NCBI RefSeq assembly: GCF_963921235.1
Contig: NC_086108.1
Location: 92,134,001 to 92,198,000 of the forward strand
Length of the DNA stretch: 64,000 nt
Reading direction: 5' to 3'
Source: Mobula hypostoma
Taxonomy: Eukaryota
Position numbers and translations under genes: made by a program. The notes beneath the pieces are model-generated. The model had not been told where the DNA came from. It saw only the letters and a program-made list of their open reading frames with translations, and ran no database searches. This document shows positions 15,615 to 16,047 of this stretch, one piece after another; position 1 is the stretch's first letter, and each line of letters starts with the position of its first letter.

Positions 15615-16047
15615 TCAATCAGTGGGTGCCGTCCCAAATCCGGGGTTGGCAGCTATGCACCTCCATCTTCTTCGATCTTGTGACAGCACCGAGTACAGCC
15701 TCTCCTCCAGTTTGTTCTCGTTGGCTGCCTTGGCACCGCCCGCCACTGCCACCGCCAAACTCGAGCCTGAGGCCGTGTCGGTCTCCAGCCGCGGCCGCTT
15801 CTTCGAGTTCGGCCCTTCCTTAGGCGGAGGCCTTGGGCAGGTCCAGGCACACGGCACAGCACCCAAGTTCATCATCTCTCTTCTAACTAAGTGCATAGCA
15901 TACGATTCGTAGATACGTGGTAAGGCTTTAATCTCTTCCACAGAAGATGGCCGTTGGCTCACAAGGAGCTCATCCGCCCTTTGTCAGGTCTTGGTTTTTT
16001 TTTAGTCCTGCTGGGTGTCCTCACACCCTCCTCACCAGACTAAGTCT
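15615..16047 (-). mobile_element. Non-autonomous RTE-derived retroposon carrying a captured gene fragment
   Basis: TSD GGAAAG at 15609-15614 and 16048-16053; 3' end encodes RTE C-terminal (A)QDRRRWRCIAANP..; 5' part resembles an RTE 5' UTR. Confidence 0.75.
15683..15862 (-). pseudogene. ZFTRAF1: Circularly permuted fragment of the ZFTRAF1/CYHR1 5' coding region
   Basis: Block 15862-15825 = [12 protein letters not shown]; block 15824-15683 = PKEGPNSKKRPRLE...[10 protein letters not shown]; the order recalled for vertebrate ZFTRAF1 is KKR...[25 protein letters not shown]. Confidence 0.85.

Follow-up and report, generated by a model that had tools for sequence, protein, structure and literature searches.

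Non-autonomous retroposons that combine the two ends of an RTE LINE, such as Bov-A, RTESINE1/2, WALLSI3 and RTE-N2_Lch (Kojima 2018, PMC5786205), resemble the small element described here in being short and in lacking an ORF. According to the sections of that source drawn on here, these bipartite LINEs consist, as does our element, of a 5'-UTR-like arm joined to ~70 nt of 3' end, with a short tandem tail and a target site duplication (TSD); RTE-N2_Lch, for example, comprises 214 + 70 bp. However, (i) a piece of host coding exon, which the small element carries within its 3' arm, is not described for the bipartite LINEs in those sections; and (ii) the bipartite LINEs are defined by an autonomous partner, whereas the small element is known here without one. 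When six short motifs were sought in the supplement of Kojima 2018, five were absent and one was unrelated.

Other amplified or rearranged host sequences provide further parallels. SVA_F1, which carries exon 1 of MAST2 (PMC12593883, in excerpt), is, like the present family, a case in which a part of a host first exon, captured once in an ancestor, became standard in an amplifying non-autonomous family. In SVA_F1, however, the exon was acquired by splicing, is colinear, lies at the 5' end and is L1-driven, with 84 reference copies, whereas in the small element the piece is internal, permuted and not cut at splice sites, the carrier is RTE-like, and copies are, by a rough depth estimate, roughly tenfold as many. 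Pseudogenes derived from circRNAs, such as the 33 mouse circRFWD2 copies (Dong et al. 2016, PMC4897178), share with it a non-colinear host exon, many copies and a link to retroelements; while these pseudogenes are flanked by LTRs and comprise several exons joined end to end by back-splicing, the junction in the small element lies inside coding sequence at non-splice positions, and its carrier is a non-LTR element. In the eccDNA-mediated duplications of Takahashi and Innan (2020, PMC7188851, in excerpt), the swapped order efghij-abcd with an intact opening point is as we find it here, but those duplications are segmental and exceed 1 kb, whereas the present piece measures 178 nt and was later amplified by retrotransposition. 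Finally, in the platypus snoRNA-RTE retroposon (Schmitz et al. 2008, as quoted in excerpts of PMC5499810), a piece of host RNA is fused to an RTE tail and present in many copies, as here; that retroposon has a whole non-coding RNA as its colinear head, while the small element has a permuted mRNA fragment as its body, between LINE-like arms.

Each of these ingredients has a precedent, in the exon capture of SVA, in the bipartite RTE elements and in duplications derived from circles; their combination in one amplified family was not found in the literature that we searched. No published account of the family was found in open-licence papers and bioRxiv (Repbase, Dfam and subscription journals lying outside this search), and an unnamed consensus may exist. 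The excerpts of the ray genome preprint that we obtained mention neither ZFTRAF1 nor CYHR1.

The insertion and its setting

The window that we analyzed, a 64,000-nt stretch of Mobula hypostoma DNA, consists of retroelements almost throughout. At 14787-16300 it contains a four-level nest, in which an older high-copy repeat encloses an RTE-like host LINE, the host LINE encloses the small element, and the small element encloses a captured piece of host sequence (the cargo); joints in other copies of the older repeat skip about 15203-16268. Elsewhere in the window, 49961-52930 (+) is occupied by a decayed but nearly complete LINE, whose single ORF includes endonuclease and RT domains, and two CR1-like LINE 3' parts in opposite orientation (27632-28575 and 60992-61920) are 94-95% alike over about 930 nt; judged by this likeness, the pair belongs to a fairly young family. 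Frames at 12068-12568 (+) and 43318-43728 (+) resemble fragments of Tc1-like transposases. The features of the nest are as follows.

15230-16251 (+): host element, the 3' fragment of another high-copy RTE-like LINE with an AGAC-type tail; ends placed by loose ends of contigs
15609-15614 (+): left TSD copy, GGAAAG, the final 2 nt of which also fit the family 3' tail (loose ends begin at 15613)
15615-16047 (-): element copy, 433 nt, a 5'-truncated member of a high-copy family, by insert boundaries and contig depth
15615-15682 (-): 3' arm, 68 nt, with LINE C-terminus-like codons and a short TGAT/TGAC tandem tail, by the tail letters of loose ends and a weak peptide match
15683-15820 (-): cargo piece A, 138 nt, ZFTRAF1 residues 65-112, the upstream half in the gene, by alignment with sawfish
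15821-15860 (-): cargo piece B, 40 nt, ZFTRAF1 residues 113-124 and on, the downstream half in the gene, by alignment with sawfish
15861-15862 (-): two junction bases, of which the family majority letter at 15861 differs from the gene
15863-15944 (-): stretch ending in REMMNL codons (RDMMNL in the family majority letters)
15945-16047 (-): RTE-type 5'-UTR-like arm, a run of hairpins with an A-tract of variable length, by metagenome matches, folding and A-tract deletions
16035-16049 (no strand): palindrome, by sequence and folding the top of an internal hairpin of the 5' arm, with its last 2 nt from the target
16048-16053 (+): right TSD copy, the initial 2 nt of which also fit the family sequence at the truncation point (loose ends behind 16046)

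The first-pass annotation had described a 433-bp insert with the TSD GGAAAG, and both its coordinates and its duplication are borne out: GGAAAG repeats at 15609-15614 and 16048-16053 bracket the 433-nt insert at 15615-16047, and the TSD is exactly 6 nt long. Taking out the insert together with one GGAAAG copy regains an open LINE reading frame. Contigs from four of the 24 listed runs (X1, X5, X9 and X11) were mapped on 15150-16350 at 88% likeness, and those of other host-LINE copies cross the site at 15614 straight (n = 15, 15, 2 and 1 in the four runs; agreement 0.98-1.0), the uninterrupted host site showing up as a loose end behind 15614 and not as a joint. None of the contigs in these four runs spans the whole of the 15615-16047 locus. 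The host LINE fragment is similar to the RT frame at 51430-52812 of the window (29% over 126 aa, E 2e-13).

Read on the minus strand, the element comprises ~185 nt, then 180 GC-rich nt, and then 68 nt ending in TGATTGA. The REMMNL codons (15881-15864, -) and the QDRRRWRCIAANP codons (from 15680, -), between which the GC-rich stretch lies, are present as annotated, as is the TGATTGA end. The element contains neither a reverse transcriptase ORF nor an RT domain; with its 5'-UTR-like arm, its 3' end and its many dispersed copies, it is the non-autonomous, two-ended retroposon that had been proposed.

The two arms

The 5' arm matches two metagenome loci, L005 (85% over 91 nt) and L004 (80% over 87 nt). 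L004 continues into coding sequence for an RT C-terminus (tblastn 4e-25 and 8e-11), and both loci end in a GLxSH-type C-terminus like that of an RTE-type frame in the window, this last motif being a weak match (E 0.78 for L004, E 0.059 for L005). The resemblance of the 5' part to an RTE UTR is thus supported by two matching loci that run on into RTE-type C-terminal coding sequence. The RTE clade label of L004, L005 and the window frames is one that we assume from the features of such frames; Pfam gives only RVT_1 and Exo_endo_phos_2. With a 5' UTR joined to a C-terminal part, L005 (about 330-995, -) and L004 (about 130-1222, -) look like internally deleted RTE-like elements, and the metagenome contigs that contain them are probably host animal DNA.

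A gapped 5'-arm motif scanned against metagenomes gave 25 loci, of which eight extend past the motif by BLASTN; the other 17 were dropped as chance, GC-rich matches. Neither the cargo nor the 3' arm occurs in any of the 25 loci. The gapped motif had 0 matches in viral contigs, and a 21-nt 5'-arm motif had 0 matches in metagenome and viral contigs. A 35-38-nt core of the arm (15945-15982, -), which contains a small stem, is 89-92% conserved in six loci beyond L004 and L005. The loci with this motif are L002, L004, L005, L011, L014, L015, L016 and L025, the six further ones being low in GC and differing in their upstream sequences; the motif region has no Rfam match in the two loci checked. By its conservation, the motif looks like a structured element shared by a group of retroelements.

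The 5' arm has a fold z of -2.27, and the three 5' regions (of the element, L004 and L005) reach about -2.2 each; their joint fold, from 3 sequences only, consists of simple hairpins with 34 predicted pairs, 4 of them with two-sided change. The fold of the whole element (z -1.57) is nothing unusual. A C-rich loop upstream prompted a search for an HDV-like ribozyme, which would form a nested double pseudoknot with conserved L3 and J4/2. Rfam gave no match in this 5'-truncated copy, in L004 or in L005, and folding confined to pseudoknot-free structures gave simple hairpins.

Beyond 16046, shared sequence continues in 23 contigs of X1 and 26 of X5 (agreement 0.71 and 0.67, respectively), and therefore this copy is 5'-truncated and 16047 is not the 5' boundary of the family. 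The overlap of target and family letters at the truncation point points to a 2-nt microhomology. The family's 30-nt upstream extension is identical to L005 at 21 of 30 positions in a count made by eye. The truncation also modifies two features of the first-pass annotation. The palindrome that it had placed at the 5' boundary does exist at 16035-16049, but it is an internal hairpin whose last two bases come from the TSD; since there are 11 palindromes of the 7-1-7 type in the window, this one alone is not beyond chance. Similarly, the absence of a tRNA head can be stated only for the present copy and for the 30 nt that precede it in the family, as the family 5' end lies further out; Rfam on 15550-16120 returned 7 matches, all far under the gathering score, with no tRNA or other family. 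The joint between the 5' and 3' parts of the bipartite element probably lies within 15863-15944, a stretch with no match in L004 or L005.

At the other end, the TGAT/TGAC tail is carried on in the loose ends of three runs. The 3' peptide resembles the window RTE frame weakly, its score being reached by 33 of 2000 shuffles; against the host LINE and against L005, the scores were reached by 479 and 485 of 2000 shuffles, respectively. The C-terminal motif of L004 and L005 is unlike that of the small element, and it is possible that the 3' arm came from a partner other than that of the 5' arm, or that tails were exchanged. Two overlapping C-terminus-like frames at 15615-15660 (-), reading ..ANPGFGTAPTD and ..PRIWDGTH before their stops, suggest a frameshift relative to the parent LINE. 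Within the 64-kb window we found no autonomous RTE with both element ends, and the LINE at 49961-52930 has no detectable DNA similarity to the small element. Taken together, we regard an RTE origin of both arms as quite probable; for the 3' arm by itself, this origin is weakly supported.

The captured piece and the family that carries it

The GC-rich cargo noted between the two arms is real: its 180 nt are 66% GC and contain 15 CpG, compared with ~2 expected per 180 nt in the window, and the CpG observed/expected ratio is 0.79 in the 178-nt cargo versus 0.27 in the window. Its translation, with X across the internal junction, gave four protein matches among 208 candidates, all of them ZFTRAF1/CYHR1, from sawfish (E 1.5e-10), two skates and lamprey (range E 1.5e-10 to 4.3e-4); the closest are batoid proteins, which by themselves would already point to a cartilaginous fish as the probable host. 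In the element, residues 113-124 stand ahead of residues 65-112, so that two neighbours in the gene have exchanged places; piece B forms the beginning of the RING finger (Sina_RING 114-139). Further parts of ZFTRAF1 were absent from the 64-kb window. A weak match at 60045-60065 was set aside as chance. Piece A alone gave nothing among 266 candidates in a word search and no usable match in the Atlas; against 1.84 billion representatives it had a single match, a repeat protein of 2,934 aa, which was attributed to chance. The cargo peptide had no match in PDB or Pfam, and a search with it for short peptides derived from the family gave none among 16 candidates.

The limits of the piece in its source gene are given by run X11, in which one contig departs behind 15820 and another before 15821. 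Their translated letters, SQETNRPELE upstream and QCTNGHLMC downstream, are the residues that border the captured piece in the skate protein. From these two loose ends, the segment measures 178 nt (138 + 40), and its junction contains neither a shared nor an additional base, a result based on two contigs of a single run, the RNA status of which is a guess, none of the listed runs being recorded as RNA. At the opening point, pieces A and B abut within one Cys codon with zero gap. In the source sequence, CCAG follows piece B and GG precedes piece A; both ends lie inside codons and neither is a splice signal. A circRNA-derived pseudogene was therefore rejected, the back-splice donor/acceptor junction being absent and both circle ends lying within codons. 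By analogy with the mammalian gene, the exon would end, with its donor, 4 nt past the piece, and the whole piece would lie in exon 1. The Narcine ZFTRAF1 models (P0011 and P0012) begin at the RING-finger Met and are without the entire N-terminal part, including the captured region; starts at the next Met lend indirect support to the placement in exon 1, and the missing N-terminus may reflect repeat masking or a GC-rich assembly gap.

A transient tandem duplication at the source locus, from which a junction-spanning piece was captured, is named in the consulted part of PMC7188851 as a false-positive route to the same pattern. We consider it very improbable here, because the captured piece would need to measure exactly one unit length by chance, the X11 contigs run on as normal coding sequence at both sides, and the sawfish, skate and lamprey proteins contain no such duplication.

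In the DNA runs, which bear three organism labels, cargo depth was about 430-3,700x that of the unique flank, comparable to the element arms. The ratio of cargo bins to the unique bin was 519-3,685 in X1, 433-2,469 in X5 and 449-2,083 in X9, and that of the arms 1,105-4,056; in X1, summed depth over the cargo bins was 7,013-49,749, against 13.5 in the unique last bin. Summed contig depth is no copy number, and the unique bin measures only 12 nt, so these ratios are read as hundreds to thousands. Depth in X1 is alike across the junctions (28,895 at 15681 and 27,540 at 15721; 11,854 at 15861 and 13,497 at 15876). It falls at 15724-15805, where the present copy has a cluster of five differences, to which we attribute the dip; if some copies were internally deleted, the same pattern would result.

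Among the 32 pieces listed of 10,399, at least four bridge the 3' junction, one each from X1, X5, X9 and X11, with at least 31 letters on each side and 11-12 differences; at least one bridges the 5' junction (X1, 20 differences) and at least one the permutation junction (X11, 19 differences), and at least three more cross some junction with a shorter side. From the 3' end, 46, 50 and 26 contigs in three runs exit into unlike flanks (agreement 0.44-0.47). No cargo-skipping joint occurs among the 15 joints listed of 101, which is weak evidence as short sides are poorly reported; nor does a loose end lie at a cargo junction among the 24 loose-end rows listed of 827. Neither a second cargo nor an empty copy was seen in the contigs of the four runs, among the rows listed.

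The family letters point in the same direction. Of the variant sites, 17 lie in the element among the 40 listed of 107, and nine of these 17 are CpG in the majority. Eight listed cargo sites are amino-acid-changing: at four, the majority letter gives back the residue found in sawfish (two changes of N to S, one of T to A and one of A to T); of the other four, three lie in a low-complexity linker that is not position-exact, and one is the junction base 15861, which departs from the gene. Since the majority letters are closer to the gene than is this copy, the master held a near-intact exon piece and this copy has decayed since. Majority letters are identical under all three organism labels, and amplification probably began before the labelled organisms split.

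We therefore conclude that this is almost certainly a high-copy family with a fixed, permuted ZFTRAF1 cargo and not a single event. The first-pass annotation had proposed that, if other copies carry the permuted exon, the capture predates amplification; depth, junction bridging and unlike 3' flanks agree that they do, and the presence of the permuted piece in diverged copies at many sites places the capture first. The case that it had set against its own proposal, in which the cargo entered this copy alone and only once the copy had integrated, would fit the finding that the 64-kb window holds no second copy of the small element. This case is contradicted by a cargo depth hundreds to thousands of times that of a single copy, by the diverged contigs that bridge the junctions and by the more gene-like majority letters, and its probability seems negligible. 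The proposal of a SINE-like family carrying a gene fragment thus stands; nothing points to a general carrier of host sequence, the one cargo seen being fixed.

Capture of the piece and its consequences

The locus is a 5'-truncated copy of a high-copy retroposon; we consider it likely that its ends derive from an RTE-type LINE, and that its 178-nt permuted ZFTRAF1 piece was captured once from a circle. In the mechanism that we favor, an internal deletion would have reduced an RTE LINE to its two ends. In a single round of retrotransposition, the enzyme would then have quit the element RNA after 68 nt, moved onto a 178-nt circle (RNA or single-stranded DNA) from the CpG-rich 5' coding region of ZFTRAF1, copied it for one lap until it met its own product, and then returned to the element. 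The chimeric copy would have become a master, from which an RTE acting in trans would have produced copies numbering on the order of a thousand. One of these, at 15615-16047, would have inserted into another LINE and later decayed.

That the founder's reverse transcriptase copied a circle is a tentative reading, to which we give somewhat less than an even chance. The exact abutment of pieces A and B is most simply explained by one lap of a circle; the apparent scarcity of empty copies would make a random hit on so small a target less plausible than capture in the course of retrotransposition; and the sense orientation of the cargo favors enzyme-coupled copying. The 178-nt circle itself was not observed. 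Single-stranded forms of microDNA are known.

A possible but less probable route is that a single cut opened a double-stranded, microDNA-type circle of the CpG-rich ZFTRAF1 5' region, which was then inserted at a break in the founder or in its parent LINE. MicroDNAs measure 100-400 bp and derive from exons and CpG islands (PMC9527254, in excerpt), with which the 178 nt, the 66% GC and the CpG ratio of 0.79 versus 0.27 agree. The circle ends are not splice sites, and the swapped order is what the literature uses to recognize a reintegrated circle (excerpts of PMC7188851). With majority letters, furthermore, a 3-nt CGC stands on both sides of the cargo, which we interpret as resembling a small target duplication. 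Swapped order, abutting ends, a length within 100-400 bp and an origin in a CpG-rich exon are therefore all found in the cargo. However, 80% of microDNAs have 2-15-nt direct repeats at the circle junction (PMC8414719, in excerpt), whereas the junction at 15820|15821 is without a shared base. A random circle would also need to hit a very small target if empty copies are few, and sense orientation is a one-in-two outcome for DNA but expected for an RNA template.

The sense orientation of the cargo equally suits a route without a circle, in which successive template jumps, or ligation of RNA, brought two adjacent linear fragments of ZFTRAF1 mRNA together in the swapped order. LINE-1 template switching and RNA ligation yield same-orientation chimeras (PMC13174262); in the consulted part of that paper on LINE-1/mRNA chimeras the word 'circular' is absent. 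Reverse transcription across open, structured RNA ends can, moreover, mimic a circle (Dong et al., PMC4897178). Nevertheless, three independent joins would be required, each without gap or overlap, and the ends of the native-order fragment pair no better than usual, 18 of 60 rotations being equally good or better in this decayed copy. We regard such joining as improbable, and return to the capture of a circle as the preferred reading.

The middle body has been called the most enigmatic part of SINEs (Kojima 2018, PMC5786205, in excerpt). Here, a host protein-coding gene can be named, with single-base precision, as the source of such a body, and the swapped order records its uptake. Because a master preserved the event and gave rise to many copies, the junctions of the founder are exactly readable, and germline capture of a 178-nt circle becomes testable. 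The family could also cause the first coding part of ZFTRAF1 to be masked or mis-mapped in these genomes.

A further possibility, which we hold to be unlikely, is that a SINE-like family was founded on a microDNA-sized circle of the ZFTRAF1 CpG island inside an RTE remnant, and that the CpG-rich piece drove the success of the element. If so, the piece might have served, for example, as an internal promoter or in escape from silencing, hence the few cargo-free copies, and about a thousand exon copies could act back, by way of small RNAs or methylation, on ZFTRAF1 as the active gene from which they derive.
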